A DNA stretch of 64,000 nt. It comes from Thermodesulfobacteriota bacterium. Its GTDB lineage: Bacteria > Desulfobacterota > Desulfarculia > JACQYL01. The notes beneath the pieces were generated by a model. The model saw only the letters and a list, made by a program, of their open reading frames with translations, was not told where the DNA came from and did no database searches. Each line of letters starts with the position of its first letter. Position 1 is the first letter of the stretch. Shown piece after piece: positions 24,053 to 41,360 of the stretch. Where the stretch lies: the NCBI GenBank assembly GCA_963675595.2, contig CAXXLZ010000002.1, positions 2,080,001-2,144,000 of the forward strand, written 5' to 3'. A program made the translations under genes and the position numbers.

Positions 24053-24064
24053 GTCGGGTCCTCG

Positions 24065-24784: not shown

Positions 24785-24841
24785 GGGCGGCCCTTTCAAG
24801 GAGACAATTCACCGCCGGCTTTTCGCCGTAGTCCGCCGCGA

Positions 24842-25261: not shown

Positions 25262-25457
25262 TTCCCCTTCCTTTCTTTTTCGATTCGTCATGTAGGGTTC
25301 GTTACGTTCATCTTGAGCCGGCAACCGGCCTTTTTCAACGGGCCGCGAAGTTTTCACGATCGACTTGTTGTCCTTCAAGCCCACGTGCGGCGGACTTCTT
25401 CCGCGGAATGATGAGAAAACCGGACTCCCTGCCTTCCGCGGCGAAGGTCCTTTTCCC

Positions 25458-26663
25458 TCATGCAGGGGCTTTCCCGCGAAACCAGTGGGGAGTCGCCAGG
25501 CAGATTTTCACCAGCATGAGCATGACCGGCACCTCGATGAGCACCCCCACCACCGTGGCCAAGGCCGCGCCGGAAGAAAGCCCGAAAAGCATCACCGCCG
25601 TGGCGATGGCCACCTCGAAATGATTCGACGCTCCAATCATGGCCGAGGGGGCCGCGTCTTCATAGGTCAGCCCCAACCATTTGGCCAAGCCGTAAGCCAG
25701 CCAGAAGATCAGATTGGTCTGAATGAACAGAGGAACGGCGATCCACAGAATGGTTAAAGGATTGGCGGTAATCACGTCGCCCTTGAAGGAGAAGAGCAAC
25801 ACAAGGGTGATGAGCAGGGCCGTGATGGTGACGGGGGTGAGGATGTGAAGGAACTTCTCCTTGAACCAGGTTTCTCCTTTGGCCGCGATGATCCACTTAC
25901 GCGATAGGTAACCCGCGGCCAAAGGCAACGCGACGTAGGCGCCGATGGACAACAGCAGCGCTTCCCAGGGTACCGGAAGACGACCCACCCCCAGAAGAAA
26001 GCCGCCCAACAGACCGTAGAGAAAAAGCATGGTCAAGGAGTTGATGGCTACCATGACCAGTGTGTGACCGTCGTTCCCACGAGCAAGGAACCCCCATACC
26101 AGGACCATGGCCGTACAGGGGGCGATACCCAGCAGGATGCAACCGGCCAGGTAACTCCGCCATAGAGGGACTTGCAGCATCTTCATGCCGTCCACCATTA
26201 CAACCGTCCCCGAGCCGTGCTCAGCTCCCACCGGAAGGTCGAGCCCGAACGGCATTTTCACGTAATCCACCGCTTCGGGGCCGATGAAAGAGTAAAACAG
26301 CGTTCCAAGAAAAAACAACCCAATGGCGTACATGGTGAAGGGTTTGATGAGCCAGTTCACCACCAGGGTCAGTCCCACCGGCTTCACGCTTTTCCCCGCC
26401 CGGATCACTTCCGAGAAATCGATCTTGACCATGATGGGGTACATCATGAAGAACAAGCAGACGGCGATGGGGATGGATACCACGGGAGCCTCCCCCACAC
26501 GAACGGTCAGGCCGTCCAGAAAGCGGGCCACGCCGGGAGCCGATCGGCCGAGCAGGATGCCCCCGAGGATGCACAAAGCCACCCACACGTAAAGGTACCG
26601 TTCGAAAAACGAAAGACCCTTTCCTTTGAGGGATTCGGTGTTACGCCCCGTTTCTCCCGCCAT
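25458..26663 (-). CDS. acr3: Acr3-family arsenite efflux transporter
   Basis: [46 protein letters not shown]. Confidence 0.95.
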
Positions 26664-26786
26664 TTCCCTTCCTCCCGGCGTAACAGGCTTTTTTAAACGG
26701 GCTGGTAAGACCATGTGAGGGGTTCCGCTCAGGCCCTACATGGCCGCCATACGAAATGGTTCCCTAAGAGGCCTGCAATCCCGCCG

Positions 26787-27311
26787 TCAATCGTCGAATT
26801 GAAACTTCGCCAAATAAGCCTCCAACCGATTCCGTCGATCGCCGTCAATTGGAGGACAATCCTGAGCCCCCTTGACGCCCTCGGCGGCACGCACGGCAAA
26901 CACCATGCAGGTAGGCTGACCGCATTCCCCGCAGTTGGTGCCCGGCAGCAGCTTTAGGATATCCAACACCTTGGGCCTGCCGGCCGCCGTAGTGCTGGGT
27001 TCAATTTCAGCGCGCTGATCCCAGGTTTCGTTGATTTCTCTGCGAAGCCACTCCAGGATTCGATCGGCTTCCTCTTCGTCCTTCAACGCGTTGATGGCGA
27101 TTTCCCGGGCGTGAACCGTAATCAATCTGCCTTGGACGCGGAAAGTGACCGACGGAGGACTCTGGGTATACTGGAATCCTCCCAGCCTGGAGTTCAGATA
27201 GGGGAGAACTTCGGCCACGTCCTCCTCCAGATGGGCCACGCAATGTACGGATTGGAAACTCGGATTGCATTTGGGCCGGAAGATGTCCTTCCGGTAGGAC
27301 TTGAGCAGCAT
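26787..27311 (-). CDS. putative Fe-S cluster-binding protein (ars-operon associated)
   Basis: LPGTNCGECGQPTCMVFA...CP C-terminal motif; SD GGAGG region. Confidence 0.8.
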   Translation of the reverse strand: MLLKSYRKDIFRPKCNPSFQSVHCVAHLEEDVAEVLPYLNSRLGGFQYTQSPPSVTFRVQGRLITVHAREIAINALKDEEEADRILEWLRREINETWDQRAEIEPSTTAAGRPKVLDILKLLPGTNCGECGQPTCMVFAVRAAEGVKGAQDCPPIDGDRRNRLEAYLAKFQFDD

Positions 27312-27444
27312 ATCTTTCCTCCTTTCCCTCCCCCGACGAACGGGACGCGCGACTCGGCGGCACTCCGGCGTCCGCCTGAGGCGGATTTCCGGAAACGTAC
27401 CCGAGATAAGGAATCCGTACAGATAAGGATGAGTGCCCGGAGGC

Positions 27445-27867
27445 TCAGGCGCAGCAGGAGGAAGCACCCCCGGAAGGGTCGGTTCCCGCCGGCGAGGTCG
27501 AAGCCGTCTCTCGGGCCGCGTTTTTCACTCGCTCGATTTCTTCCTCGACCAAGTCGAAATTCTTGTTCTTCTCGATTCCCAGATCCGTGATCACCAGATA
27601 ACCCCGCAAAGGCACGCCCGCTTTCTCAAAAATGGCCTTGGCACACCCCACGGAACAACCGTCGATGACCACCAGCCCGGAAACGTCTTTCGCGGATTGA
27701 ACGAAACCGCTGAGTTCCCCGCCGATACCGGCAAGACAAAACATGCGACCAAAGCCCTCCCGCGTCAATTCCACGGCCGCCCGGTTGGACAACTGACCTA
27801 CGTTGGAGCCTCCCGAACACGACAGAATCATGGTGCTCGAGCCTTGGGCGCAGCATTCCGAACTCAT
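27445..27867 (-). CDS. DGC-domain putative zinc-binding protein
   Basis: CSGGSNVGQ, CLAGIG, IDGCSVGC; terminal CC pairs. Confidence 0.85.
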   Translation of the reverse strand: MSSECCAQGSSTMILSCSGGSNVGQLSNRAAVELTREGFGRMFCLAGIGGELSGFVQSAKDVSGLVVIDGCSVGCAKAIFEKAGVPLRGYLVITDLGIEKNKNFDLVEEEIERVKNAARETASTSPAGTDPSGGASSCCA

Positions 27868-27892
27868 GGCATTTCCTCCTTTGGACGTTTGC

Positions 27893-28132
27893 TCAATTCG
27901 CCTCTGAGATCCAGGTCTTCACCTGGTCTATGGTGGGAACTTTGCCCGAAATCTTCACCTTACCGTCCACAACCACACCGGGGGTGGCGAAGATGCCGAA
28001 CTTGGCGATGTCCAACGGGTTTCCAACCTTTTCTATATGAGCATCCACTCCCGTCTCCGCTACGGCCTCGGCCACCACCTTCTCCGTCTGCTTACATTTG
28101 GCGCATCCGGGTCCCAACACTTTGATATCCAT
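27893..28132 (-). CDS. MTH895-family small redox-active disulfide protein
   Basis: IKVLGPGCAKC, TPGVVVDG. Confidence 0.9.
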   Translation of the reverse strand: MDIKVLGPGCAKCKQTEKVVAEAVAETGVDAHIEKVGNPLDIAKFGIFATPGVVVDGKVKISGKVPTIDQVKTWISEAN

Positions 28133-28194
28133 CTGAACCTCTCCTTAAGTTTATCATTTATCGGCTTCGTTGTTTCTTTTCACGATGAATCCGA

Positions 28195-29370
28195 TCACGC
28201 TCCCACCAGCGCACCGTAGACAATCCCGGCGATGGTCGACAAAATCACGATGATTCCACAGAACACGACCGTCTTTTTCGCCCCCATGACTCCCGCGATG
28301 ACCAGCATGTTGGGTAGAGAAAGCGCCGGCCCCGCCAGCAAGAGCGCCAGCGCCGGCCCCTTCCCCATGCCGGCTCCCAGCAATCCCTGAAGGATGGGAA
28401 CCTCCGTCAAGGTGGCGAAGTACATGAAGGCTCCGGCCACGGCCGCGAACAGGTTCGCCCAGATTGAATTTCCTCCCACCAAGGTCTGTACGTAGGCTTC
28501 CGGAATCAGGGCCGGGTGCCCCGGACGCCCCAACAGAAATCCGGCCACCAGGACCCCCGCTCCCAGCAAAGGGAAGATCTGTTTCATGAATCCCCAGGAG
28601 GAGTCCACCCAATCGATCCGTTCCTCTTTGGAGAACCATTTCATCAGCATCAGAAACATCACCCCCAGAAACACGGCGGTCAGCACCCATTTGACCCTGA
28701 AGATCGCGGCCCACAGACCGCCCTCACCGGGGGCAGGCTGTGCAAAAGCGGCAAACACCAGGATCAACACGAGAGACAATACGAAGAGGGCGTCCTGCGT
28801 GAGCGTTCGCCCTTTCTCTTCCTCGTCGGGAAGGACAATGTCGCCTGCGAGGCGCGCGGCATCGTCTTTCCTGAAAATGAGAGCCATGAGCAATCCCGTG
28901 ACCACGGCGAAGATCACCGCGCCTATGGCTCGGGCGAGGCCCAATTGCCATCCCAGGACCCGGGCCGTAAGCACAATGGCCAGCACGTTGATGGCCGGTC
29001 CCGAGTAGAGGAAGGCCGTTGCCGGTCCGATGCCCGCGCCTCGGGTGAAGATGCCGGCGAACAAGGGGAGAACGGTGCAGGAGCAAACGGCCAGAATGGT
29101 TCCGGAAACCGACGCCACCGAATAGGACACGAACTTGTTGGCCTGAGCCCCGAAGTATTTGAGCACCGACGCCTGGGACACGAAAACCGCAATGGCCCCG
29201 GCGATGAAGAAAGCGGGAATCAGGCAGGTGAGCACGTGCCGGCGGGCGTAGTCCTGGAGCATGAGAAAGGCTTCCAGTCCCGATTGCCTGATTACGGGGG
29301 AACTCCAGGGCACGAAGTACGCGGCGGCGAACACGGAAACAATGAGCAACAGCTTGGACTTTTCGGACAT
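28195..29370 (-). CDS. ArsP/DUF318-family permease
   Basis: AVCSCTVLP, FLYSGPAINV, MYFATLTEVP, GPALSLP. Confidence 0.88.
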   Translation of the reverse strand: MSEKSKLLLIVSVFAAAYFVPWSSPVIRQSGLEAFLMLQDYARRHVLTCLIPAFFIAGAIAVFVSQASVLKYFGAQANKFVSYSVASVSGTILAVCSCTVLPLFAGIFTRGAGIGPATAFLYSGPAINVLAIVLTARVLGWQLGLARAIGAVIFAVVTGLLMALIFRKDDAARLAGDIVLPDEEEKGRTLTQDALFVLSLVLILVFAAFAQPAPGEGGLWAAIFRVKWVLTAVFLGVMFLMLMKWFSKEERIDWVDSSWGFMKQIFPLLGAGVLVAGFLLGRPGHPALIPEAYVQTLVGGNSIWANLFAAVAGAFMYFATLTEVPILQGLLGAGMGKGPALALLLAGPALSLPNMLVIAGVMGAKKTVVFCGIIVILSTIAGIVYGALVGA

Positions 29371-29385
29371 GGGCTTATCTTCCTA

Positions 29386-29403
29386 TATACCAATATTGGA
29401 ATA
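29386..29403. promoter_or_regulatory. putative ArsR operator (second copy)
   Basis: Imperfect palindrome TATACCAAT-ATTGGAATA, similar to 29758-29775. Confidence 0.55.
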
Positions 29404-29418
29404 TTATGGCCAAAACTT

Positions 29419-29748
29419 TCATCCCAACACTTTGAACGCCCGGCTTCGCTGCTGAATCACTTCCAAGGCGCAATTAAAAAAATTCAACACGCAAGGAGTC
29501 TCCAAATGATAGAAGATTTTGGCGCCGTCTTTGCGGTCGTCGACGATCCCGGCGTTCTTGAGCACGGATAAATGTTTGGACACCGTGGGTTGGCCGACGC
29601 CCAGCCTCTCGGCCAGCTCCCCCACGCACAAATCCTTTTCTCGCAGCGCATCCACGAGCATCAGCCGGGTTTCGTGTGCCAAAGCTTTGGCCACCTGTGC
29701 CCTCAATCGAAAAAGCGCCAATGATTCCGCATTGATTTCGTTTCCCAT
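29419..29748 (-). CDS. arsR: ArsR/SmtB family repressor
   Basis: KALAHETRL, LCVGEL, QPTVSKHLSVLK wHTH; PCVLNFFNC. Confidence 0.92.
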   Translation of the reverse strand: MGNEINAESLALFRLRAQVAKALAHETRLMLVDALREKDLCVGELAERLGVGQPTVSKHLSVLKNAGIVDDRKDGAKIFYHLETPCVLNFFNCALEVIQQRSRAFKVLG

Positions 29749-29755
29749 GTTTTTT

Positions 29756-29784
29756 ATTATTCACATATGGGAATATAATGTCAA
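29756..29784 (-). promoter_or_regulatory. sigma70 promoter with overlapping ArsR operator
   Basis: TTGACA (29784-29779), 17 bp, AATAAT; palindrome TATTCACAT-ATGGGAATA at 29758-29775. Confidence 0.7.
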
Positions 29785-30012
29785 GAGCAAAACAGCGCCC
29801 ACGGGAGGCTTCCTTCCCCTGGAAATTTCAGAGCTCGTGCCGTCCGCGCTTCTGCAACTCAATGCCGACCCACCTCGTATCAGCGGGCGGAAGCCTGAAA
29901 ACAGACTCCCGCCGAAGACTCTTCCGCTGCTGCTCCTGAAACGCTCAGGCCGGCCTTTTCCGAAAGCCCCTCCAAATGAGGCCGAGCACGACGAGACCGT
30001 GGTGTCGCACCG

Positions 30013-30327
30013 TCAGTTAAAAATTTTGCCCAACAGCCCCTTCTTCCTAGTTTCAGGAACGGGCATGCCCAATTCCCTGCAAATCGCAGTCTCAAGGACA
30101 TTCTCCTCCACGTCCGATCCTTCCACCACGATCTTGTCTCCTACCATGACGGCCGGAGCCACCGGCAAATCCAGTTCAAAATATTCGTCGGTGTTGTACG
30201 CCGCTTTGGGCTTGGATATGGTTTCGATTTCGATTTGGTATTTTCCGCCCAACCTGGGCATCATTTCTTTGAAATGCCTTCAGGGCCTTCCGTTGGGTTC
30301 GTTGAGAAAAAACCTGACCTTTAACAT
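30013..30327 (-). CDS. tsoC: NEPxGxxU-motif selenoprotein (TsoC-like, thioredoxin-like fold), Sec at codon 16
   Basis: SD AGGAG, ATG 30327, MLKVRFFLNEPNGRP-TGA(30280-82)-RHFKEMMPRL in frame with track ORF 30013..30264; hairpin GCCCA-GGT-TGGGC at 30247-30259; family name recalled. Confidence 0.88.
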
Positions 30328-30441
30328 GTTGGCTCTCCTTACCTGATGAACTGCTTAGGCTCCGGTCTTCTGGCAGCCGAATTCCGCGGAGCGGGATCGG
30401 GCCGGAGCCGGTTTTCCCATAGCCTGAATGCCCCCACCAAG

Positions 30442-30948
30442 TTAGAATTTCTGGGTCTTGATGCTGTGGTAGACCGCCTTGCACATGCTGGAAGATCCGC
30501 CCGCAACACCTTCGCGATTCTTGAACCCTTCCGTTTGCTTCAGACTCTCCAGATACGTCTCCGGGTCATCCAGCTCTACCCACGCCTGTTCCACAGGCAC
30601 CTCCGGTCTAATACGGAAAAGCAGGCCGTCCCCGTACGGGTCTTTCACGACCACCCCAGGGTCCTCGGACACGGCCCTGTTGAATCGGATGGTCCCCGCC
30701 ACGGGAGCTTCCAGGTATTTCAGTTTCGTGGTAATGGCCACCCCTATCGCCCGGCCTTTCTCCACCGACTCACCCTCGTTCACCAACTCGCTCAAGTCGA
30801 CAAAGGCGCCTACCAGTACGAGGGTGGGTTCTGCCAGGCCGAAAACCAGCTCCGCGCCTTCCCGGCGTCCCCACAGGCCCTGCTTGGCGTCGTATTTCAA
30901 GTCTTCCGGGATTTCCACCGTTCTCCCTAAAAACTTATCGATGATCAT
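30442..30948 (-). CDS. glycine cleavage H-like (lipoyl-domain) protein
   Basis: IPEDLKY...W...FG, EAPVAGTI..N, DPYGDG.LF GcvH pattern; divergent lipoyl loop ITTK; C-terminal extension with Cys. Confidence 0.75.
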   Translation of the reverse strand: MIIDKFLGRTVEIPEDLKYDAKQGLWGRREGAELVFGLAEPTLVLVGAFVDLSELVNEGESVEKGRAIGVAITTKLKYLEAPVAGTIRFNRAVSEDPGVVVKDPYGDGLLFRIRPEVPVEQAWVELDDPETYLESLKQTEGFKNREGVAGGSSSMCKAVYHSIKTQKF

Positions 30949-30970
30949 GACGATTCCCCGCCGTCTCCTT

Positions 30971-32755
30971 TCATTCCGGTTTGTGCGTGCCCCCCGCTCT
31001 CCTTGCCGCTCTTGGCTCGGGAGCCGAAACAACCGCATCCATCAACTCCAGGAACCTCGAAGGCGGCACGAAGTCCACCAACCTGAGGTCCCTCCTTTCC
31101 TTTCCATGCCCGTCCAGGAAGACCACCGTGGGAACACCCTTGATTCCGTATTCCCTCAACAGCCGTTCGTTCAGTGGATTTCCACTCTTGGTCACGTCGA
31201 TCTTGACCATGACGACTTCCTCATCTCCCCGCTTCACGATCCGAGGATCATGGAACACTTCCTCATCGAGAGCTCGGCAGGGAGAACACCAATCCGCGTA
31301 GAAGTCCATGATGACGGGCTTGTCGGCTTCCACCGCTTGGCGAAGCAGATCGTCCGAGTAGGCGTGCCAAGAAACGCCGGGACCTCTGACGGCCCATTCC
31401 CCCACCAGAAGGCAGGACACCAGCACACCCAGGATGAGGACTCCTCGTTTCATCCAAACGAAAGCCGAAAAGGCGGCCCTGGTCTTGTCCAACAAGCCCA
31501 GGTGAACGCCGGCCGCCAAAGCGACGCCGGCTGAGAGAAAGACGAAAGTCGTTTCCGACAGAAGCGGCTGAAGGAAGTAGGCCGCCATGCCCACCAGAAT
31601 CCAGCCCATGAGCTTGCGCACCCACACCATCCATTCCCCGGACCGGGGCAGGCGCTCGATCTTTCCTGAGAACAACGCCAGAAGGAACAGCGGAAGGCCG
31701 AGACCGAGGCTTAGGGTGAAAAACACCAGGAATCCCATCCAGGCCGATCCGGTGCTCGCCACCCAGGTGAGCAGTCCCAGAACAAAGGGACCAATGCATG
31801 GGGCGGCCACCACCCCCAGGGTGATCCCCATGAACAGGGATCCGAACCACCCCGCATGCGGTTTGGAGGCGGCTTGCGTCAAGAATCCGGGCAAGCGAAG
31901 CTCCCAGAATCCGAACATGCTGCTCGCGAAAACCAGCAACACCACGGCCACCGTGACAAGCACCGCCGGATTCTGCAGCAATGCTCCTAAAAGACCGCCG
32001 GTAAGGGCGGCGGTGACCCCCAACGCCGAATTGGTGAGGGCGAGCCCGGCCACGTACAAAACGCCGTGCACCACGATCCTTCCTCTCCCGGTCCCCGACC
32101 GGCCGCCGAAGTAGGCGGCCGTAATGGGAATCAACGGGTACACGCAGGGAGTCAGGTTCAGGGCCACGCCACCCAGAAAGATGCCCAGTAGTGTCCACAG
32201 GGCGGCCAACCCGGTGAAGGAACCGGGGGACAATGGCTGCCCGGCGCCTACCGAAGCCTGCGGCTTCGAACTCGCCGTGGGACGCCCCAGTCCTTGCCAC
32301 TCGGGGAATCCCTGAGGATAGCGATATACGTTGCGGTAGCCCAATTGGACGGCCACCCGGGCCGCCGAGTCGCTGCGGACTCAGGTGAGCCCCGCTCAGT
32401 AGAACACAAGGGTCCGATCCCGATCTCCTCCCAAGTAGGCTTTCAGTTCCTCTTTCTTCGTGAAACGGGCCCACCAGGTGGGTTCCATGGGGAAGTTGCC
32501 CGCACCTTGGATATGTCCGGTTCGGTATTCCCATTCCTGACGCGTATCCACCAGAAGGAGTCCCTGACGGTCCTTGCGGTAGCGTTCCCAGAGTTCATCA
32601 GCGTTCATCAGCCGGTAGCCGCCGGCTCGGGCTTCGGCTTCAACGTCCTCCCAAGTTGCCTGTTGTGGAGCCACGGGCCTGCTCGTGTACCACGCGATAC
32701 CGGCGGCGGCCGACATGCAAAGAAGTACTATTATGATCTTATTTATCTTTTTCAT
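30971..32755 (-). CDS. tsoB: rhodanese-DsbD-thioredoxin fusion selenoprotein (TsoB-like), Sec at codons 120 and 125
   Basis: Rhodanese (DTRQEWEYRTGHIQGA) ends TLVFY-TGA-AGLT-TGA-VRSDSAARVAVQLGYRNVYRY, in frame with the DsbD part (LTPCVYP, APCIGP, WCSPC); hairpin at 32349-32365. Confidence 0.88.
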
Positions 32756-32882
32756 GAAGGCATCTCCACTTCGCACCGGTTCCCCGCACCTCCCTTTACT
32801 CCGATGCGGAGGATCCCGGGCCGCCTCTAATTCGCCGTCTCGATAGTCGTTCGTGTCGCCCGACCGGACGTTGTCAGCGGCT

Positions 32883-34010
32883 TCATGTACCGCCCGCGGG
32901 ACTGCACGCGGGCGCTTCCGTCGGTTTGTTCCCGAGTTCGGATACCGGTTTGTTTCCGGGTTCCGCCGCCGGTCGCTCGGACGGGGACATGGAATCGTAA
33001 AGCAGCTTGATCCGTGTGGCTCCCACGGTCATGGCCACCATCATGGCTTCCTTCAGTTCCTCTTCACCGGCTCCCAATTCCCTCGCGACCGCAAGGCAAT
33101 AGTTGGCTCATGGATCGCAGCCGGCGGCCAGGGATGCTCCGAGGGCGATCAAGTGCTTGGTCTTCCGGTCCAGAACACCGTCCGCGTAAACGCCTTCAAA
33201 AAAATCCCCATATTTGTCCAATGGATTCATGTTCGACCCCTTGTCCCTCAAAGAATAAACCGGCGGCGACTCCGCCCGGATCAACACGCCCTTGGTCACG
33301 GGGGAGGAATCGAAACCCGTTTCGGACACCAACTCCACATGCGTGAATCCCGACGCCTGAATCATTTCCAGGAAAACCTTTCCCGGTATCGCGCCGCCCA
33401 GTCAATGGTGCCATTGAGATATCCGGCCGGCCTTGTCGGAAGGCGCCTCGCCCACCAGTACCTGATCCGCGATCATCAGGCGCCCTCCGGGCCTCAGGAC
33501 CCGACGTACCTCGCGAAGCGCCGCCTTCTTATCCCCGATCAGGTTGAACACGCCGTTGGAAAGCACTACGTGGAAACTGCGGTCCGGAAAGGGCAGGTCC
33601 GTGGCGGACCCTTCCAGGAAAGTCACGTTTCCAAACCCGGTCAGGTGCCGGTTCCGCTCCGCTCGGTGCAGCATCTCGGGCGTCATGTCCACTCCGGCGA
33701 CACGCCCCTCGGAACCCGTCATGAAGGCGGCCGCCAGCGAATCCACGCCTCCGCCGCAGCCGATGTCCAGCACGGTTTCGCCTTTTTCCACCGGACCCAG
33801 AAAGAAGGGATTCCCCACACCGCAATAAGACGCTGAGACCTCGTCCGGGAGATTGCGAAGGAAATCGGGGTCATATCCCAACAATTCGAGTCCCTTCCTC
33901 CCCGTGGGATATCGAAACATGCCCTCGGGACTTCCGGCCGCCTTCGAATACCTGGCCCGGATTCCCTCATGAATTTTTTCCAGATCGTCGCCGGATAGTG
34001 TTAGTTCCAC
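32883..34010 (-). CDS. ArsM-like SAM-dependent methyltransferase fused to AhpD/CMD domain; Sec at codons 203 and 301, possibly also 376
   Basis: Three track ORFs (33402..34010, 33108..33365, 32883..33077) are one frame joined by TGA: WHH-U-LGGA and AAGCDP-U-ANYC; SECIS-like hairpins at 33368-33386, 33081-33096, 32857-32870. Confidence 0.85.
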
Positions 34011-34158
34011 CGCTCATCCCCCATCTGTCTTACCAGCTTTGATGCCTCGGGCCGGTGTGTGCCGGTACGCCGCGCACCCCTGCGGCCGCCGTACCGGGTG
34101 CCCACAATGTGGTCCTATTCACGGGGTGTGCCGCAGGAGGACGTCGTCCCCCTGCCCC

Positions 34159-35543
34159 CATAAGCGCTAACTTAAGCCTTTTGTTTTGGTGAGGTTTATG
34201 GTACCGTTGCCGCCAAAGGAGGTGGCAATGGAGCGTCTCGTTTTTTCCGAGGAAATGGAAGACTGGGAAGTTCTCCAGGGTTTTCTTCCCGATGGCTGGC
34301 AATCCAAAGCAAGGGAACTTGGTGCCGTTGTCAGATACCGTAAGTTCGTGGACGCCGAAGGTCTGTTGCGAACGCTTCTGATCCATCTGGCGGAAGGTTG
34401 CTCACTTCGGCTGACGGCGGCCAAAGCCAGGTTCGGCAACATTACGTCGATTTCCGACGTAGCTCTCCTAAAACGACTGAATAAATGCGGAGAGTGGTTT
34501 CGGTGGATGGCCTTAGGGGTCATGGAGAAATGGTTTCGAAAGCTGCCCGCCGTTGTTTTTGGAGAGAATTCACGCATCAGGTTGATCGATGCCTCCACCA
34601 TTCAAGAACCTGGAAGTACCGGAACGACTTGGAGGGTCCATTATTCCATACAATTGCCTTCGCTGCGCTGCGACGAAGTCTATGTAACAGACCCCAAGAT
34701 CGGAGAATCCTTCACCAATTTCAAAGTCCATGGCGGTGAACTTCTTGTAGCGGATAGAGCCTATTGCACACCAAGAGGAATTCACCATGTCATAGACAAC
34801 GGCGGCGACGTCCTGGTTCGAATGAAACACCGTGTCGCCATGGTGGACAAGCAAGGGGAACGATTCCAATTACTCCCTCATCTAAGGACGTTACGTGTAA
34901 ATAAGCTTGGCGACTGGGATGCATTCGTTCCATTTGAACAACGCTTGGTTGCAGGTAGAATCTGTGCCATCAAGAAGAGCAAAGACGCCACTGAAAAAGC
35001 TCGTAAAGCGATAGAAAAAGAGGCGAGGAAAAAAGGTCGCCAAGTTACTCCGGACACCCTCGAAGCGGCGGCCTACATATTTGTTTTCACAACATTGGGC
35101 CGTGAAATCTCGCCCTCTCAGGTCCTCGAGATGTACCGAGGTCGATGGCAAATTGAACTCGCTTTCAAGCGTCTAAAGTCCATTCTCGGTTTAGGCCATC
35201 TTAGAAAGACCGACATCGAAGGAGCCAAGGCCTGGATCCATGGGAAACTACTGGTGGCTTTCTTAGTGGAGGCCATGATCGCCGCAGGCGAATCTTTTTT
35301 TCCCTGGGGATACCCACTCCAAAAAGAACCACCGTAGAAATCGATGCTTCTGGAGAGAGACCATGTTTATGTTACACCTGCTGAAACAAGCCGTGAACCC
35401 TAAACTCGGCTTGGCCGAATGCATTGCCGGCTGGGATAACATATCTTTTTATTTGCGAGAACCGCCAAGGAAACGAGCACTTCAGCGGCTGATTCCTCAG
35501 ACGGAAAGAAGCATAGCAAACAATGCTTAAGTTAGCGCTTATG
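34159..35543 (+). mobile_element. IS4-family element, copy 1 (1385 bp)
   Basis: Perfect 19-bp IRs CATAAGCGCTAACTTAAGC; 11-bp TSD CCCCCTGCCCC. Confidence 0.95.
34228..35337 (+). CDS. IS4-family DDE transposase
   Basis: IDASTI, ADRAY, YRGRWQIELAFKRLKS; SD AGGAGG. Confidence 0.95.
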   Translation: MERLVFSEEMEDWEVLQGFLPDGWQSKARELGAVVRYRKFVDAEGLLRTLLIHLAEGCSLRLTAAKARFGNITSISDVALLKRLNKCGEWFRWMALGVMEKWFRKLPAVVFGENSRIRLIDASTIQEPGSTGTTWRVHYSIQLPSLRCDEVYVTDPKIGESFTNFKVHGGELLVADRAYCTPRGIHHVIDNGGDVLVRMKHRVAMVDKQGERFQLLPHLRTLRVNKLGDWDAFVPFEQRLVAGRICAIKKSKDATEKARKAIEKEARKKGRQVTPDTLEAAAYIFVFTTLGREISPSQVLEMYRGRWQIELAFKRLKSILGLGHLRKTDIEGAKAWIHGKLLVAFLVEAMIAAGESFFPWGYPLQKEPP

Positions 35544-35555
35544 CCCCCTGCCCCC

Positions 35556-36940
35556 CATAAGCGCTAACTTAAGCCTTTTGTTTTGGTGAGGTTTATGGTA
35601 CCGTTGCCGCCAAAGGAGGTGGCAATGGAGCGTCTCGTTTTTTCCGAGGAAATGGAAGACTGGGAAGTTCTCCAGGGTTTTCTTCCCGATGGCTGGCAAT
35701 CCAAAGCAAGGGAACTTGGTGCCGTTGTCAGATACCGTAAGTTCGTGGACGCCGAAGGTCTGTTGCGAACGCTTCTGATCCATCTGGCGGAAGGTTGCTC
35801 ACTTCGGCTGACGGCGGCCAAAGCCAGGTTCGGCAACATTACGTCGATTTCCGACGTAGCTCTCCTAAAACGACTGAATAAATGCGGAGAGTGGTTTCGG
35901 TGGATGGCCTTAGGGGTCATGGAGAAATGGTTTCGAAAGCTGCCCGCCGTTGTTTTTGGAGAGAATTCACGCATCAGGTTGATCGATGCCTCCACCATTC
36001 AAGAACCTGGAAGTACCGGAACGACTTGGAGGGTCCATTATTCCATACAATTGCCTTCGCTGCGCTGCGACGAAGTCTATGTAACAGACCCCAAGATCGG
36101 AGAATCCTTCACCAATTTCAAAGTCCATGGCGGTGAACTTCTTGTAGCGGATAGAGCCTATTGCACACCAAGAGGAATTCACCATGTCATAGACAACGGC
36201 GGCGACGTCCTGGTTCGAATGAAACACCGTGTCGCCATGGTGGACAAGCAAGGGGAACGATTCCAATTACTCCCTCATCTAAGGACGTTACGTGTAAATA
36301 AGCTTGGCGACTGGGATGCATTCGTTCCATTTGAACAACGCTTGGTTGCAGGTAGAATCTGTGCCATCAAGAAGAGCAAAGACGCCACTGAAAAAGCTCG
36401 TAAAGCGATAGAAAAAGAGGCGAGGAAAAAAGGTCGCCAAGTTACTCCGGACACCCTCGAAGCGGCGGCCTACATATTTGTTTTCACAACATTGGGCCGT
36501 GAAATCTCGCCCTCTCAGGTCCTCGAGATGTACCGAGGTCGATGGCAAATTGAACTCGCTTTCAAGCGTCTAAAGTCCATTCTCGGTTTAGGCCATCTTA
36601 GAAAGACCGACATCGAAGGAGCCAAGGCCTGGATCCATGGGAAACTACTGGTGGCTTTCTTAGTGGAGGCCATGATCGCCGCAGGCGAATCTTTTTTTCC
36701 CTGGGGATACCCACTCCAAAAAGAACCACCGTAGAAATCGATGCTTCTGGAGAGAGACCATGTTTATGTTACACCTGCTGAAACAAGCCGTGAACCCTAA
36801 ACTCGGCTTGGCCGAATGCATTGCCGGCTGGGATAACATATCTTTTTATTTGCGAGAACCGCCAAGGAAACGAGCACTTCAGCGGCTGATTCCTCAGACG
36901 GAAAGAAGCATAGCAAACAATGCTTAAGTTAGCGCTTATG
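35556..36940 (+). mobile_element. IS4-family element, copy 2 (appears identical, tandem)
   Basis: Same IRs; identical ORF set offset by 1397 bp; 11-bp TSD CCCCTGCCCCC. Confidence 0.95.
35625..36734 (+). CDS. IS4-family DDE transposase (identical to copy 1)
   Basis: Identical translation in ORF track. Confidence 0.95.
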   Translation: MERLVFSEEMEDWEVLQGFLPDGWQSKARELGAVVRYRKFVDAEGLLRTLLIHLAEGCSLRLTAAKARFGNITSISDVALLKRLNKCGEWFRWMALGVMEKWFRKLPAVVFGENSRIRLIDASTIQEPGSTGTTWRVHYSIQLPSLRCDEVYVTDPKIGESFTNFKVHGGELLVADRAYCTPRGIHHVIDNGGDVLVRMKHRVAMVDKQGERFQLLPHLRTLRVNKLGDWDAFVPFEQRLVAGRICAIKKSKDATEKARKAIEKEARKKGRQVTPDTLEAAAYIFVFTTLGREISPSQVLEMYRGRWQIELAFKRLKSILGLGHLRKTDIEGAKAWIHGKLLVAFLVEAMIAAGESFFPWGYPLQKEPP

Positions 36941-36957
36941 CCCCTGCCCCCCTTCTT

Positions 36958-36991
36958 GCTCCTGCGAATCGCGCAGGCGATTCGCAGGAGC
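36958..36991. repeat. perfect 15-bp inverted repeat (REP-like hairpin)
   Basis: GCTCCTGCGAATCGC-GCAG-GCGATTCGCAGGAGC; no U-tract in the operon direction. Confidence 0.7.
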
Positions 36992-37081
36992 GGCATGTGC
37001 CGTCCAACCCGTTAAGACTCTAAAAGTTCTCAAAAAGGGTTCCCTCGGTCCCCCCTTCGAATGCTCACCGCATTGTCCCGA

Positions 37082-37390
37082 TTATCCTTCCATGGCTTCC
37101 GTCACCGCTGCGGAGAGAGCCCCCATTTCGGGAATGTGGTCGAAGGCAAGGCGTCCGTTGATCACCAGCGATGGAACCGGAGGTTTGTCTCCGCATAGCC
37201 GCTTGAGTTCCTCCTGCCTGGCGAGGCCCTCCCGTTCCCCCACGTCCACCACCGTCCACTCCAATCGCCCCTCGGGCAACTCTTCGGCCAATTCCTCCAA
37301 AACGGCCAATGCCAAATCACACAGCATGCATCCTTTCTTCTTGGCCACGATCTCCACGAATACCCGGCGGTTTTCCAGTGCCATAATCAT
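37082..37390 (-). CDS. thioredoxin/glutaredoxin-like protein (CxxC)
   Basis: VEIVAKKKGCMLCD, VPSLVING; start uncertain. Confidence 0.78.
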   Translation of the reverse strand: MIMALENRRVFVEIVAKKKGCMLCDLALAVLEELAEELPEGRLEWTVVDVGEREGLARQEELKRLCGDKPPVPSLVINGRLAFDHIPEMGALSAAVTEAMEG

Positions 37391-37512
37391 CCCTACGGAC
37401 AATAACGCCTCTCCGAGGTTGCGTTCTCCCCCATGAGGCCTGGTTTCAAACGGTTCCCGCACATTGCGCCTCGCCGGAAGGCACGCTTTCCCCTCCCGGC
37501 GAGCTGCGGATG

Positions 37513-37767
37513 TCAGTCTTCCTCTTCCACCTTGATCCTTACGTCCGCGTAGCGGGTTCTTTTCTTGATCTGAGTGATCAGTTTTTCGGGATCCGTCTGC
37601 GAAGGATCATATTTCACTTTCGCACGTTTAAACACGGTACTGGTCTCGTACTCCAATACACCGGGTGACTCATCCAGAGCCACTTTGACCATGCCTTCTC
37701 AAGTCAGTCACTCCATCCTGGGGATGTAGAACGCCACTTCATTCACGATCGTATTTTCTCCCGACAC
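37513..37767 (-). CDS. heavy-metal-associated (CopZ/MerP-like) selenoprotein with MxUxxU motif; not in ORF track
   Basis: SD AGGAGG, GTG 37767: MSGENTIVNEVAFYIPRME-U-LT-U-EGMVKVALDESPGVLEYETSTVFKRAKVKYDPSQTDPEKLITQIKKRTRYADVRIKVEEED; hairpin GTGGCTC-TGGAT-GAGTCAC at 37665-37683. Confidence 0.87.
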
Positions 37768-37859
37768 GTCCGCCTCCTTTCCACGGCTTCGCATCCTGAT
37801 TCGGGGCGGTCCCCAAAAGGTCAAGCCTTCGCACATCAAGCCGTTTCGAACCCTGATGC

Positions 37860-38210
37860 TCAGAAGTTGAAGACCTGGGCTTCGGCCGCCAGCTCGATGA
37901 GATGCGGTCCTCCGTCCAGCACCATATTGGAGTAGAATTTGGCCTCGTCCACCTGACGAGCGCGGGCGCAGGGAATTCAGACTCCCACGGGGATCTCGTG
38001 CTCCACCAGGTGGGGGAAATAATCGTTGGGACAATCTCCCGTTTTGGTTTTTTCGTTGAAATCCCGGGTGGAATCCGCCCAAAGCGTTCCGTCGTCGATG
38101 AAGAACAGATTGACCGCATGCCCGGCCGCATGGGCCACTTTGGCCAGCTGGAAACAACGCGTAGCCGAGTCCACCTCGTCCCTGCTCAATACAAACAGAA
38201 ATTTCGCCAA
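37860..38210 (-). CDS. DsrE/F-family selenoprotein (UxxC), Sec at codon 78
   Basis: KFLFVLS...VNLFFIDDG...PVGV-TGA-IPCARAR...EAQVFNF; hairpin CTCGTC-AGGTG-GACGAG at 37944-37960. Confidence 0.88.
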
Positions 38211-38264
38211 ACAGCGCCTCCTTTCTTCTCGGCCGAGACTCCGAAGAGGCCGAGGTTCATGGTT

Positions 38265-38738
38265 TCAATCGCTTGGAATGGAAGGAATCTTCCCCTCCGT
38301 TGCGAGCTTCTTGATCAAGAAACGGACTCCCGACCCGGAAACGCCCAGGTCTTCGGCAAGGCGAGCCGGATCGGCGCTTCCCTTGCTGCGCACCAAGGCG
38401 AGAACCTCCTCCTCCAGCTCTTCCAGCCAGTCCTCGAAGAGCACCAAAACTTCGGGCTCCGTAACCGCCTTCAATTGTTCGGATCGGCTCACCTTCTCCA
38501 CCAAACTTCGGCACATCTGCGTTGGATCGACACCTTCGTCCATGCATTCGGCCAGTCAACGGTGCACCATGCCGGCGGTCTTTTCATCGGCTCGCTCCCC
38601 GAAGAGTTCGACGACGAACCTGAGACGCTCCTCTTCTTCCATGAGCGCCAGACGTTTTCCGAGCAGGGAGGAAAGCAGGGGAAGCGCGTCCCGGTCTTCC
38701 ATGGAGTCCACCATCCGTTCCAAAGTCTCCAAATTCAT
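38265..38738 (-). CDS. tsoA: TsoA-like (xULAxC motif) selenoprotein with C-terminal winged HTH, Sec at codon 61
   Basis: Track ORFs 38556..38738 and 38265..38543 join as GMVHR-TGA-LAECMDEG; hairpin at 38523-38542 with AGGTG loop; family name recalled. Confidence 0.83.
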
Positions 38739-38758
38739 GGCGTTTTCCCCGTTGCAGG

Positions 38759-39124
38759 TTAGAAGATTTTGGCCGCTTTCCCGAGATCTTCGGCGAGGGA
38801 GGAAAGGCTCGTCAGGATTTCCCCCACACGTTCATCGGCCGACCGGTAATAAATGAAGGGGCCCCGCCGCTCCACTTGCACCAGAAAGGAACGTTTCAGT
38901 TCTTTGAGATGATGCGAAACCAGGGGTTGGGAGAGGCCGAGTTCCTCCACGATTTTCGACACGCTCTTTTCCTTGCGGCTCACACATAGAAGAATTCTCA
39001 GGCGATTCTCATCGGAAAAGCACTTGGACAGGAAGGCGACACCCTGAAGGTTCAGTGAATCCACGAGCCGCGTTGCGGAATCGACGGGCATGGGCGTCTG
39101 ATTTCGAGACGGAGGTTCAAGCAT
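38759..39124 (-). CDS. ArsR/SmtB family regulator heading the selenoprotein operon
   Basis: FSDENRLRIL, LSQPLVSHHLKELK, RRGPFIYY; start uncertain. Confidence 0.9.
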   Translation of the reverse strand: MLEPPSRNQTPMPVDSATRLVDSLNLQGVAFLSKCFSDENRLRILLCVSRKEKSVSKIVEELGLSQPLVSHHLKELKRSFLVQVERRGPFIYYRSADERVGEILTSLSSLAEDLGKAAKIF

Positions 39125-39163
39125 GCGGGTCCGTTCGCAATGAGGGTTCAACGTAATCAACAT

Positions 39164-39205
39164 ATCAATATACATTTATATATTGATCCCGCATGTCCTT
39201 GTCAA
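39164..39205 (-). promoter_or_regulatory. sigma70 promoter with overlapping palindromic operator
   Basis: TTGACA (39205-39200); ATCAATATA-N6-TATATTGAT at 39164-39187 covering the -10 region. Confidence 0.7.
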
Positions 39206-39357
39206 GCCTTCTTATGCGCCCCCTTTGAACCACGGCCCTTCAACGACCCTCTCACATCTATCCGCCGATCGTACGAAGTCATTGGTAAGCATTTGAAATC
39301 TCATCGCTATTCCAAATCACACTTTCTCGGGTTCTCGACCCTTCCCAAAAGGAAACT

Positions 39358-39386
39358 TTGACATTCTCGATCTTTTGAGCTATTTT
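39358..39386 (+). promoter_or_regulatory. sigma70 promoter of the small peptide gene
   Basis: TTGACA, 17 bp, TATTTT. Confidence 0.65.
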
Positions 39387-39419
39387 ATATCGGAATCATC
39401 AATAACAGGAGACAAAAAG

Positions 39420-39500
39420 ATGCTTACCCTGAAGTCCGTAGAGAAGAAGGTGGTGCGTCAAGGGAACAAGCCGGCTACGTGACACGGCCCTGAAGCGTAA
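39420..39500 (+). CDS. candidate 26-aa selenopeptide MLTLKSVEKKVVRQGNKPAT-U-HGPEA
   Basis: SD AGGAGA at 39407-39412, ATG 39420, TGA 39480-82, TAA 39498-500; hairpin AACCGCC-GGTC-GGCGGTT with loop 24 nt after the TGA. Confidence 0.7.
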
Positions 39501-39578
39501 ACCGCCGGTCGGCGGTTCCAAAACGGGTAAACCCCAACGGACGAGCTTCAAACCATGGACCCCGTTCCGTCGGGACCC

Positions 39579-39614
39579 AAAAAAACCCGGGATCGCTCCC
39601 GGGTTTCTTGTTTC
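39579..39614. terminator. intrinsic terminator, likely bidirectional
   Basis: AAAAAAACCCGGGA-TCGC-TCCCGGGTTTCTTGTTT between convergent genes. Confidence 0.8.
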
Positions 39615-39638
39615 TCAATCCCGATGCTTCACGCGCGG

Positions 39639-41360
39639 TCAATATGGACGCGACGATTCCCCCGTTTTGTCCCGCACCTCCATGGACCCGACCGCATAGA
39701 GCCGTAACGCTCCCGTCACGCCTTTAACATTCGCCTCAAAGGGCCGCAGGACTTTCACATAGTCCCGCACCGACTCCAGAACGGCCTCCGACACCACCAC
39801 TTCACCCTCCCGGGCTTCGGTTTGGATCCGCTGAGTCAGGTTCACGGCGGCGCCCACAATGCCGTATTTCGCGCGAATCTCGGAACCCACATTCCCCACG
39901 ATCACCTCACCGGTGTGCACCCCGATTCCCATGCTCAGGCTCGGCAGGCCCGGGACCTTCTCCAATTCGTTCATCATGTCCAAGGCAACCTGCATATCCA
40001 ACGCGCATCTCACCGCATCGAGGCTTCTGTCCTCCGGAACGGCGTCCAACGGATCGAAAAACACCAGCATGGCGTCCCCGATAAAATCCACGATAATGCC
40101 TTCATGTGAACGGACCACCTGGATCATTCTCGAATAATACCGGTTCAGTACTGTGATCACCGTTTCCGGCTCCATTCGCTCGCACAACGCGGTAAATCCC
40201 CTGAGGTCGGACATCAAAATAAACACTCTGCGTTTCTCTCCGCCCAACCGGGTGGATTCCGGCCGCCGCAGGAGCTTTTCGGCGACTTCACGATCCATGT
40301 AGCGGCCGAAAGTCGTTCGTATGAACTCCTGTTGCCTCAAAGACTCCACCATGGCATTGAAGCCGGCGGCCAGCCGTCCCACCTCATCGGAAGTTCGGAC
40401 CTTCACGGTTTCGCCGTAATCGCCCTCGGCCACCCGTTCCGCAGCCAGAGCGATCTCCCGAATGGAGCGCACGGTTCGAGAGGACACATATTGGATCAGA
40501 AACAGCACCATCCCGATACACAACGCGCCCAAGAGCCCGAAGTAGTTGCGAAAACGTATGATGGGCTTGAGAATCTCGTCGCCCTGCGCGAAGACCACGA
40601 CGCTCCAGGGCGCCTGCTTGAGGCGAAAGAAGCCGGCCACTTCTTCCGGAGGATGCCCTTCCCCGAAGATCGTACCGGAAGGCCTCTCTTTCATCGCCTG
40701 AAGCACCCGGGCTTCCAATGGGCTGCCGCTTCCTCCCAGCACTCGCCTTCCCGAATCTCCGGACGAAGTGTGAGCCAGGTAGCGCCCGGAAGCGTCCACC
40801 AAGCAGCCCTTCACTCCCTGCCACCAACTGCTCGCCACCAGATCGGCAATCAGATGATGCAGTTGAACGGTCACAAGAACTCTGCCGACGATGCGTCTCT
40901 GTTCGTCCAGCAACTCGGATACGAGTGTCACGCTTTCACTGCCCGTATCCGGATCCAACTCGGGAGGAGTCACCACCGACACGCGATCCTGCGTAGACAT
41001 CATCCGTCCGCCCATGTGGCGGCCGCCGAAGGCGAACATGGAAGACTCATTAGACCATTCCAGGTCCACGCTTTGAACGCCGTCCAGACTCCTGAGCTCC
41101 TCCAGCACGTGTTCTTGAGCCCTCAATCCTCCGCCCACCGGGATTCGGCGAAGCAGGGAAAGCCACTGAACGGGTTCCTCCAGACGCATGTCGACCTGAT
41201 GGGCGGCCCACCCCAGCTTGAGGATGGCGGCTTCCTTCCACTGATCCAACATGATGTTCCGCGCATAGATGAATCCCACGAATCCCGTCAGGAAAAGAAG
41301 CAGCGCCACCGGGCACAGGACCCAGATCATCAATCGCCTGCGTAGGCTTGAGGCTTTCAA
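39639..41360 (-). CDS. membrane adenylate/guanylate cyclase (periplasmic sensor-HAMP-class III cyclase)
   Basis: Two TMs, HAMP DEVGRLAAGFN, ILMSDLRGFT, FIGDA, GNVGS...YGIVGAAVNLTQR. Confidence 0.9.
   Translation of the reverse strand: MKASSLRRRLMIWVLCPVALLLFLTGFVGFIYARNIMLDQWKEAAILKLGWAAHQVDMRLEEPVQWLSLLRRIPVGGGLRAQEHVLEELRSLDGVQSVDLEWSNESSMFAFGGRHMGGRMMSTQDRVSVVTPPELDPDTGSESVTLVSELLDEQRRIVGRVLVTVQLHHLIADLVASSWWQGVKGCLVDASGRYLAHTSSGDSGRRVLGGSGSPLEARVLQAMKERPSGTIFGEGHPPEEVAGFFRLKQAPWSVVVFAQGDEILKPIIRFRNYFGLLGALCIGMVLFLIQYVSSRTVRSIREIALAAERVAEGDYGETVKVRTSDEVGRLAAGFNAMVESLRQQEFIRTTFGRYMDREVAEKLLRRPESTRLGGEKRRVFILMSDLRGFTALCERMEPETVITVLNRYYSRMIQVVRSHEGIIVDFIGDAMLVFFDPLDAVPEDRSLDAVRCALDMQVALDMMNELEKVPGLPSLSMGIGVHTGEVIVGNVGSEIRAKYGIVGAAVNLTQRIQTEAREGEVVVSEAVLESVRDYVKVLRPFEANVKGVTGALRLYAVGSMEVRDKTGESSRPY

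Follow-up and report, generated by a model that had tools for sequence, protein, structure and literature searches.

A probable Tso locus rich in selenocysteine codons, with a small candidate selenopeptide gene beside it, in a Thermodesulfobacteriota bacterium

We analyzed a 64,000-nt window from a Thermodesulfobacteriota bacterium (positions 2,080,001 to 2,144,000 of contig CAXXLZ010000002.1, GenBank assembly GCA_963675595.2) and found on its minus strand, at 30013-39175, a cluster of real selenoprotein genes rather than pseudogenes. The cluster is very likely a functional-looking locus of the Tso (three selenoprotein operon) kind, belonging to a selenocysteine (Sec)-decoding, sulfate-reducer-type bacterium and holding four further co-directional genes between tsoA and tsoB. 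Under the standard code this strand is a run of short fragments, which readthrough of TGA joins into whole proteins. All 11 TGAs to which a sequence-only reading of the window had drawn attention (30280, 32381, 32396, 32883, 33108, 33402, 37699, 37708, 37977, 38556, and 39480) proved to be in frame at exactly these positions, and reading through them gave coherent proteins from a six-gene minus-strand cluster and one plus-strand open reading frame (ORF). With 32883 counted as Sec, the six co-directional genes hold ten Sec codons (TsoA 1, DsrE-like 1, HMA 2, ArsM/AhpD 3, TsoB 2, and TsoC 1) and the small plus-strand ORF holds one. The DNA outside insertion sequences (IS) amounts to ~6.8 kb (9602 minus 2 x 1397), as had been calculated before. 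The order on the minus strand is tsoR, tsoA, DsrE-like, HMA UxxU, Cys-type thioredoxin (Trx)-like, two tandem IS copies, ArsM/AhpD, tsoB, GcvH-related, and tsoC. By ascending coordinate, the features are:

30013-30327, minus strand: tsoC (NF045708, 150.8 bits, cut-off 45)
30442-30948, minus strand: GcvH-related protein, no Sec (NF045810, 213.6 bits, cut-off 150)
30971-32755, minus strand: tsoB (NF045694, 954.7 bits, cut-off 805; Pfam Rhodanese, DsbD_TM, and Thioredoxin)
32874-34010, minus strand: ArsM-like methyltransferase/AhpD fusion (NF041537, 513.7 bits by hmmscan, cut-off 510)
34159-35543 and 35556-36940, plus strand: two identical tandem 1385-bp IS copies with 22-nt inverted repeats
37082-37390, minus strand: Trx/glutaredoxin-like protein, Cys form without Sec (Glrx-like by Pfam; motif K-G-C-M-L-C)
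37513-37767, minus strand: HMA-domain metal-binding selenoprotein (Pfam HMA, 40.6 bits)
37860-38210, minus strand: DsrE-like selenoprotein (Pfam DsrE, PF02635, 62.5 bits, cut-off 22.7; residues 3-116, across the TGA)
38265-38738, minus strand: tsoA selenoprotein (NF045695, 195.2 bits, cut-off 170)
38759-39175, minus strand: tsoR, ArsR/SmtB-type regulator (NF045707, 143.3 bits, cut-off 115, residues 42-136; Pfam HTH_5)
39358-39606, plus strand: free-standing candidate small selenopeptide gene (promoter, ribosome-binding site, ORF, hairpin, and terminator)

Six of the proteins (TsoA, TsoB, TsoC, TsoR, the GcvH-related protein, and ArsM/AhpD) scored above curated NCBIfam cut-offs; the motifs that the sequence-only reading had assigned to TsoA, TsoB, and TsoC thus belonged to the right families (NF045695, NF045694, and NF045708). 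Matches to NCBIfam and Pfam profiles extended across both sides of the TGAs, bearing out the claim that readthrough yields coherent proteins. Across the loci of five relatives, every one of the 18 aligned Sec columns was a stop, each of these stops being TGA with conserved sequence on both flanks, which answers the question of whether homologs carry TGA or Cys at these sites. Sec also aligned with a functional Cys in three cases, namely solved ArsMs, the CxxC of HMA domains, and Cys forms of TsoC. The host genome (6.79 Mb in three contigs) encodes the Sec machinery whose presence had been proposed as a check: genome profile searches recovered selA (621 bits), selB (404.2 bits), and selD (386.2 bits), along with a tRNA-Sec (77 bits; anticodon tca by ARAGORN). 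The selD gene (C2:3335545-3336462) has one in-frame TGA of its own, so that selenophosphate synthetase is itself a selenoprotein here.

Were the TGAs ordinary stops, the region would be a graveyard of nonsense-mutated pseudogenes or of sequencing errors. Standard ORF calling does break each gene at its TGAs, and public databases mostly hold the downstream fragments only. This explanation is nevertheless scarcely credible given the recurrence of the TGA columns with conserved flanks in relatives, the curated selenoprotein models that match across them, the hairpins behind them, and the complete Sec machinery. Independent assemblies X1, X5, and X3 also cover the cluster genes, as judged from whole-contig identities rather than a comparison of each TGA. 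The expectation that standard annotation would call such genes pseudogenes did not hold, as public gene calls are mostly truncated ORFs instead: among the 120 TsoA relatives listed, 118 entries are C-terminal pieces of 86-94 amino acids. NCBI now holds models able to call these selenoprotein genes. The terminal stop of all six cluster selenoprotein genes is likewise TGA (30013, 30971, 32874, 37513, 37860, and 38265); the triplet thus means Sec inside a gene and stop at its end, and only context separates the two.

Bacterial selenocysteine insertion sequence (SECIS) elements are stem-loops with G(G/U) in the apical loop, located about 16-37 nt after the UGA. A hairpin of this geometry had been claimed behind each TGA, and SECIS-like hairpins with the described geometry were seen, the G-rich loops being GGU, CGGGU, GGU, GGUC, UGGAU, AGGUG, AGGUG, and GGUC. 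Under a rule that asks for a stem of at least 5 bp and, starting 16-40 nt after the T of the TGA, a loop 3-8 nt long with GG or GT in it, hairpins were found behind 9/10 candidate Sec TGAs and also behind 32883. As two TGA pairs share one hairpin each, this corresponds to seven of eight independent hairpins. Several observations weigh against reading these hairpins as SECIS elements. The rule was drawn up after the hairpins had been seen, which inflates the contrast with background; random TGAs of contig C2 satisfied it in 2147/20000 (10.7%) and 2211/19999 (11.1%) of cases on the two strands, as did 2/5 ordinary stop TGAs of the same cluster genes. Among relatives, only 11 of 18 Sec TGAs fit, the misses being five in TsoA and two in TsoC, and an Rfam search of 29000-40500 (E<=10) returned three chance-level matches and no SECIS family. 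The TsoA hairpin departs from the rule because its stem is bulged; that stem covaries among relatives (GGA...UCC versus GGG...CCC).

In TsoA, Sec61 (TGA 38556-38558) lies in the motif R-U-L-A-E-C, with the bulged SECIS-like hairpin at 38524-38541. Its TGA column was conserved in 5/5 relatives, and TsoA was found in six of 41 related genomes, own genome included, with one TGA in each. U61, C65, and the invariant C76 lie near each other in sequence, and the C-terminal part is winged-helix-like (Pfam HTH_24, 24.1 bits, residues 106-151). The tsoR gene immediately upstream may truly start at a later Met than the one listed. TsoB, whose most likely start is ATG 32755, consists by hydropathy and Pfam of an N-terminal hydrophobic signal or anchor helix, a rhodanese domain, a DsbD-type membrane domain, and a C-terminal Trx domain with W-C-S-P-C. 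Its Sec pair, encoded by TGA 32396 and 32381, sits in the rhodanese domain (Y-U-A-G-L-T-U) and both TGAs were kept in 3/3 relatives. The hairpin behind them spans 32348-32366 (loop CGGGU), and an alternative stem at 32365-32384 includes the second UGA. TsoC carries Sec16 (TGA 30280-30282) in N-E-P-N-G-R-P-U, followed by a hairpin at 30246-30260 (loop GGU), and its TGA was kept in 4/4 relatives. In ten database homologs fetched, the same column held Cys (4/10) or W (6/10), the latter presumably a TGA rendered as Trp by the source. TsoC was predicted to adopt a thioredoxin-like beta-alpha-beta fold (predicted local distance difference test, pLDDT, 79.4) that places Sec16 at the N-terminal end of helix 1. 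Its top Protein Data Bank (PDB) fold matches were thioredoxins and the arsenic chaperone ArsD; that these matches are weak (E 1.5e-3 to 1e-2, none <=0.001; TM 0.45-0.62) counts against the fold assignment.

Sec78 of the DsrE-like protein (TGA 37977-37979) forms a UxxC motif (G-V-U-I-P-C) ahead of a hairpin at 37944-37960 with the loop AGGUG, and relative G002, a member of the same family, has a TGA at the equal position. The HMA protein starts at GTG 37767 after the ribosome-binding site (RBS) AAGGAGG and has 84 residues. Its Sec20 and Sec23 (TGA 37708 and 37699; M-E-U-L-T-U) occupy the position of the CxxC in the metal-binding domains of Cu-ATPases, and a single hairpin at 37665-37683 (loop UGGAU) lies behind both codons. 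Both TGAs are shared with G002, where the ortholog of the Trx-like protein also lies directly upstream of ArsM/AhpD. In motif and fold the HMA protein appears to resemble the UxxU metal-binding family, though it is not a scored member.

The ArsM/AhpD fusion holds Sec203 (TGA 33402; H-H-U-L-G-G-A), Sec301 (TGA 33108; C-D-P-U), and Sec376 (TGA 32883), the last in the tail G-G-T-U-S-R, with hairpins at 33368-33386, 33081-33096, and 32857-32870. The TGA at 32883, previously listed only as a possible Sec codon, is followed by S-R, a second TGA, and a CGUCC-GGUC-GGGCG hairpin. In the low-complexity tails of 6/6 full-length homologs fetched, one TGA was likewise followed by a second TGA 2-7 codons on (T-U-S-R, T-U-D-N, S-U-P-R, and three of the form T-U-A-T-K-x-G-S-G). 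Given these paired TGAs, the hairpin, and the three Sec that a review tabulates for the family (PMC13188914), 32883 very probably encodes the third Sec, with 32874-32876 as the stop.

The scores of the extra genes include several points that weigh against their assignments. ArsM/AhpD reached 502.3 bits in a six-frame search against the cut-off of 510 and is thus borderline in its own family, the HMA protein scored 38.9 bits against NF041115 (UxxU metal-binding; cut-off 95), and the Trx-like protein, which has no HUIPC motif, scored 52.9 bits against NF047660 (HUIPC Trx-like (seleno)protein; cut-off 105). The DsrE-like protein had no match among PDB sequences. A further point concerns methylation, for which the sequence-only reading had named an ArsM-like enzyme. 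The fusion family was indeed matched, but the reaction is less certain than the name suggests. The cysteines of the SNC and ECLxGA motifs are the As(III)-binding pair of ArsM. In alignments with solved ArsMs, Sec203 takes the place of the E-C-L-x-G-A Cys, whereas the S-N-C Cys is replaced by Gly in 6/6 family members. We considered the protein as a canonical ArsM and rejected this, the SNC Cys being Gly, the ECLxGA Cys being Sec, and the score against the general ArsM model NF008823 being 185.5 bits (cut-off 263). Because the ArsM-like domain lacks the SNC-motif Cys, its substrate may be other than arsenite.

The spacer between the Trx-like and ArsM/AhpD genes is occupied by the IS pair, which lies antisense to the operon and is accompanied by a duplicated 11-nt target. 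The element is active, since 12 near-full and near-identical copies are present across the genome's three contigs; in run X1, its contig had a depth of 186, compared with 11.5-18.5 for the flanks. In contigs from runs X3 and X5, position 34148 is followed directly by 36941, so that 2792 nt are absent, and in view of this IS-free junction we conclude that the insertion is recent and strain-specific. These contigs cover the rest at ~97.5% and ~99.7% identity, respectively, and the X1 contigs contain no differing letters. Without the IS pair the spacer would be ~278 nt, against ~275 nt in G002. A point against a fully working locus is that ~2.8 kb of antisense IS may cut the downstream half off the upstream promoter. 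The genes would then be real and the locus partly disabled in this strain, with ArsM/AhpD, tsoB, the gcvH-like gene, and tsoC separated from the tsoR/tsoA promoter and either silent or transcribed from a fortuitous one. The antisense placement inside the operon, the IS-free junction in two other assemblies, and the short spacer of G002 are consistent with such a loss, and a crude scan detected no sigma-70-like site on the minus strand at 34010-34158. We nevertheless regard partial disablement as rather improbable: the downstream ORFs and Sec codons are all intact, the scan was crude and covered one promoter type, and IS ends often carry outward promoters.

The locus is a member of an already published kind, not a new system, because the passages on Tso in review PMC13188914 describe the operon as accompanied by multiple adjacent unrelated selenoprotein genes and list several families (TsoA, TsoB, TsoC, TsoX, TsoY, ArsM/AhpD, HUIPC Trx, UxxU metal-binding, and DsrE-like) as predicted selenoproteins. 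The sequence-only reading had seen a much-expanded Tso version; the extra genes are present, but on the same passages the arrangement was already known as a kind. It had also called the function uncharacterized, in agreement with the statement there that the "biological functions remain largely uncharacterized" (PMC13188914). In full-text searches, TsoA/TsoB and the phrase "three selenoprotein operon" turned up in that review alone (PMC13188914).

As in the published Tso operon, all four proteins here exceed their cut-offs, the ULAxC, UxxxxU, and NEPxGxxU motifs occur, and the genes are co-directional; tsoB and tsoC have a GcvH-related gene between them, an order shared with G001, the other relative of the same family. 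Unlike it, four extra genes and two IS copies separate tsoA and tsoB, and TsoA reads R-U-L-A-E-C rather than L-U-L-A-x-C. TsoX is encoded elsewhere, ~356 kb from the tso cluster (C2:2475728-2475973; 109.4 bits, cut-off 52; one TGA), and TsoY had no match in the genome, a weak negative since the search matched no control genome either. The primary paper on the Tso operon is reportedly Haft & Tolstoy 2025 in mSystems, as cited in the review. That paper may already cover the ars adjacency, the helix-turn-helix part of TsoA, and perhaps the small ORF. What this copy adds is the IS-free form in close relatives, a downstream ars island, and an ArsM-like domain without one canonical As-binding Cys; the novelty that remains lies in the small selenopeptide, a possible Sec-bearing helix-turn-helix protein in TsoA, and the noncanonical ArsM site.

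Other known systems share parts of the locus. The ArsM/AhpD protein agrees with the selenoprotein family NF041537 in its fusion, its UxxG and CxxU motifs, and the three Sec tabulated in the review (PMC13188914), its own-family score being the borderline value given above. DsbD/ScsB-type reductases, like TsoB, have a DsbD_TM domain with a pair of membrane Cys and, behind it, a Trx domain carrying WCxPC. In contrast to them, the exported N-terminal domain of TsoB is a rhodanese with two Sec instead of an immunoglobulin-like Cys domain, and at 261.1 bits TsoB falls below the DsbD cut-off of 330. The Sec-assisted organometallic (SAO) system (Haft & Gwadz 2023, as presented in PMC13188914) is similarly a multi-selenoprotein operon linked to metal or organometal handling, and a permease adjoining the cluster weakly matches the SaoE efflux transporter (100.5 bits, cut-off 325), whereas no Sao selenoprotein family was matched among the proteins scanned here. 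UXX-star selenoproteins, so named in PMC13188914, end in Sec, two residues, and a stop; the ArsM/AhpD tail (U-S-R-stop) has this form with a SECIS-like hairpin behind the stop. The hairpin of the small ORF also lies behind its stop, but there five residues follow Sec (U-H-G-P-E-A-stop) and no NCBIfam family matched.

In more distant relatives the order is simply tsoR-tsoA-tsoB-tsoC, to which the tso locus of G001 adds the GcvH-related gene. In G002, the genes DsrE-HMA-TsoR-TsoA-Trx-ArsM/AhpD share one strand up to the end of the contig, and from this gene set we conclude that the extra genes are a lineage feature, not peculiar to the window. Outside the Tso core and directly downstream of tsoC lies a set of ars-type genes:

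21103-29748, minus strand: ars-type gene set
29419-29748, minus strand: ArsR-family regulator within it, with its own promoter-like site at 29784-29756

This set encodes an ACR3 arsenite efflux transporter (374.9 bits, cut-off 282.8), an ArsC-like reductase scoring below its cut-off (105 bits, cut-off 174.3), an ArsP_1 permease, an iron-sulfur (FeS) protein, a Trx, an ArsE-family Trx-like protein, and a CoA-disulfide-reductase-like flavoprotein; a 237-residue ORF at 24039-24752 had no Pfam or NCBIfam match. Genes for ArsR, ArsE-like, ArsC-like, and Trx proteins also adjoin tso in G001. Against a general link between tso and ars, no ars genes were found within the DNA fetched around the tso loci of three more distant relatives. 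Elsewhere in the window an EF-Tu-like gene (5256-6155), a second copy of which lies just upstream of the window (C2:2068712), has two tRNA-like matches beside it (~6322-6557); these features emerged as subthreshold matches in the selB and tRNA-Sec searches.

The function we tentatively favor, at a confidence well short of even, is an ArsR/SmtB-controlled redox relay that handles soft metal(loid) or chalcogen species. By analogy with DsbD, where electrons pass from the cytoplasm through a membrane Cys pair and Trx to an exported domain, reducing equivalents would cross the membrane through the DsbD-type domain and C-terminal Trx of TsoB and reach its exported rhodanese domain, whose U-x4-U pair would reduce or capture the substrate. 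In the cytoplasm, the metal(loid) would be held both by the HMA UxxU protein and by TsoC, which has a predicted Trx/ArsD-like fold with one Sec where helix 1 begins. It might be methylated by the ArsM-like/AhpD protein, with Sec203 and either the CxxU of AhpD or the mobile Sec of the C-terminal tail replacing the missing Cys; a second ligand would have to be borrowed in this way because Gly takes the place of the SNC Cys. The DsrE-like and GcvH-like proteins may act as S/Se carriers, the neighboring ArsP-type and ACR3 transporters may export the products, and TsoA, with U61, C65, C76, and its winged-helix part, may serve as another sensor, one based on Sec.

The main rival to this relay is S/Se trafficking, either a persulfide/perselenide relay or recycling of Se for Sec synthesis, in which metal(loid) detoxification plays no part and the ars neighbors are coincidental. 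Rhodanese, DsrE-like, and GcvH-like proteins have classic sulfur-carrier folds, a likeness to the sulfite/persulfide sensor BigR was seen in the second ArsR-family regulator (72.3 bits against a cut-off of 155), and no ars genes were seen in what was fetched around the three tso loci mentioned above. A metal(loid) is nevertheless indicated by the ArsM-like methyltransferase, the HMA UxxU protein, the match of TsoC to the ArsD fold, and the ArsR/SmtB type of TsoR, as well as by the adjacency of ars and tso in two same-family genomes, and we consider trafficking alone a doubtful account, if one to be taken seriously.

The remaining in-frame TGA, at 39480, lies in the small plus-strand ORF, which is real and, as far as its sequence can tell, conserved as six distinct sequences, each with a covarying hairpin. 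The gene begins with a sigma-70-like promoter site (39358-39386, TTGACA-17-TATTTT) and the RBS AGGAG, followed by an ORF of 26 residues at 39420-39500 (MLTLKSVEKKVVRQGNKPAT-U-HGPEA) in which the Sec is codon 21. Its 3' end reads ACG-TGA-CAC-GGC-CCT-GAA-GCG-TAA; a 7-bp hairpin with the loop GGUC (39500-39517) overlaps the final base of the stop codon, and a strong terminator follows at 39583-39606. That terminator may be shared with a HAMP and adenylate/guanylate cyclase gene (39639-41360, minus strand) that converges on the ORF and is itself followed by genes for a sigma-54 response regulator and a PAS histidine kinase. An operator-like palindrome, ATC(G/A)-N7-(C/T)GAT, lies between the -10 box and the RBS (~39390-39406) and also at four other loci (L043, L044, L045, and L071); it is clearest in genome G003 (TATCGAAATAATCGATA), while the window has the weakest form. 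The -35 box, TTGACA, does not vary.

While tblastn with the peptide found nothing in the loci of the first five relatives, DNA similarity located the ORF in three relatives. A profile found it in 4/5 genomes of the order (own included) and 4/95 of the class, with one weak extra match in a phylum sample of 401, and an exact degenerate pattern matched three species-representative contigs, from the same three relatives, and five metagenome contigs, with the N-terminal motif in 8/8, so that none of these matches appears to be due to chance. The six distinct peptides (26-32 residues) share the consensus M-L-x-[ILV]-[KR]-x-[VI]-E-x-K ... A-T-U-H-G-P-E-x-stop, and all six end in U-H-G-P-E-[AKS]-stop and have a strong RBS and a start codon. 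The distances from start to TGA (60, 60, 78, 75, 75, and 60 nt) are all multiples of 3, and within the A-T-U-H-G-P-E codons the sole variable columns (3, 6, 15, and 18) are third positions, two of them past the TGA. The hairpin keeps its place while its stem shows paired substitutions (ACCGCC/GGCGGU, CUGUCC/GGACAG, and UCUGCC/GGCAGA), a covariation judged by eye without a formal count, as MAFFT misaligned the 3' arms.

The ORF had been counted as the seventh gene of the cluster; the six minus-strand Sec genes stood, and the ORF is real, but it is probably a bystander that lies next to tsoR by chance. It was not beside tso in the other loci examined (three loci, and the immediate neighbors of five), and its neighbors differed across five loci, none being conserved. 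Its T-U-H-x-P core is like the A-R-T-U-H-A-P of formate dehydrogenase, a likeness of four to five residues only. Three formate dehydrogenase alpha genes of the genome have Sec in A-R-[ITL]-U-H-[SA] (C2:4120443, C2:3228665, and C2:19518), and a fourth, adjacent copy has Cys (A-R-T-C-H-A-P). The extra match of the phylum search was V-A-T-C-H-G-P-E-K in a lipoprotein-like ORF of ~95 residues (G401:C45:28802-28849; E 6.4e-4), possibly a Cys counterpart of the selenopeptide C-terminus, although with 401 genomes searched this may be a chance match.

The transcript could instead be a small RNA or leader in which the hairpin is a terminator or protein-binding element and the ORF is incidental. The ORF has only 26-32 codons, no family library searched contains a match (NCBIfam, E<=10), and single-sequence minimum free energies of the hairpin are unremarkable (z = -0.27 to -2.65). 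We judge this unlikely, as the RBS and start codon are strong in all six sequences, the reading frame up to the TGA is always preserved, the variation on both sides of the TGA is confined to third positions (4/4 columns), and the strong terminator at 39583-39606 is separate from the hairpin. The strings UHG and HGP are absent from the 2026 review PMC13188914. It is plausible, if at somewhat less than an even chance, that the ORF represents an undescribed, independently transcribed family of bacterial selenopeptides and that TsoA is at the same time a Sec-containing winged-helix DNA-binding sensor, a Sec-based transcription factor with the U61/C65/C76 triad as its soft-metal(loid) site. The product could act on its own as a Sec-His peptide in redox chemistry or metal binding, or the mini-ORF could serve to report the capacity of the cell to decode Sec. 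Set against the sensor part is the TsoA model, which is helical with a confident C-terminal three-helix part but poor overall (pLDDT 70.4; predicted template-modeling score 0.42).

With ten Sec codons in six co-directional genes, this is among the densest selenoprotein loci likely to be encountered and a compact test bed for the Tso system. The leads particular to this copy are the adjacency of the ars island and a natural IS-bearing/IS-free pair for comparison of expression. An ArsM-like enzyme without its canonical arsenic ligand calls into question functions assigned by name, and public gene calls treat such genes badly, most of the listed TsoA entries being C-terminal stumps. If translated, the ATUHGPE selenopeptide would extend the selenoproteome to a free-standing 26-residue peptide with its SECIS outside the reading frame, and its family would be among the smallest selenoproteins.

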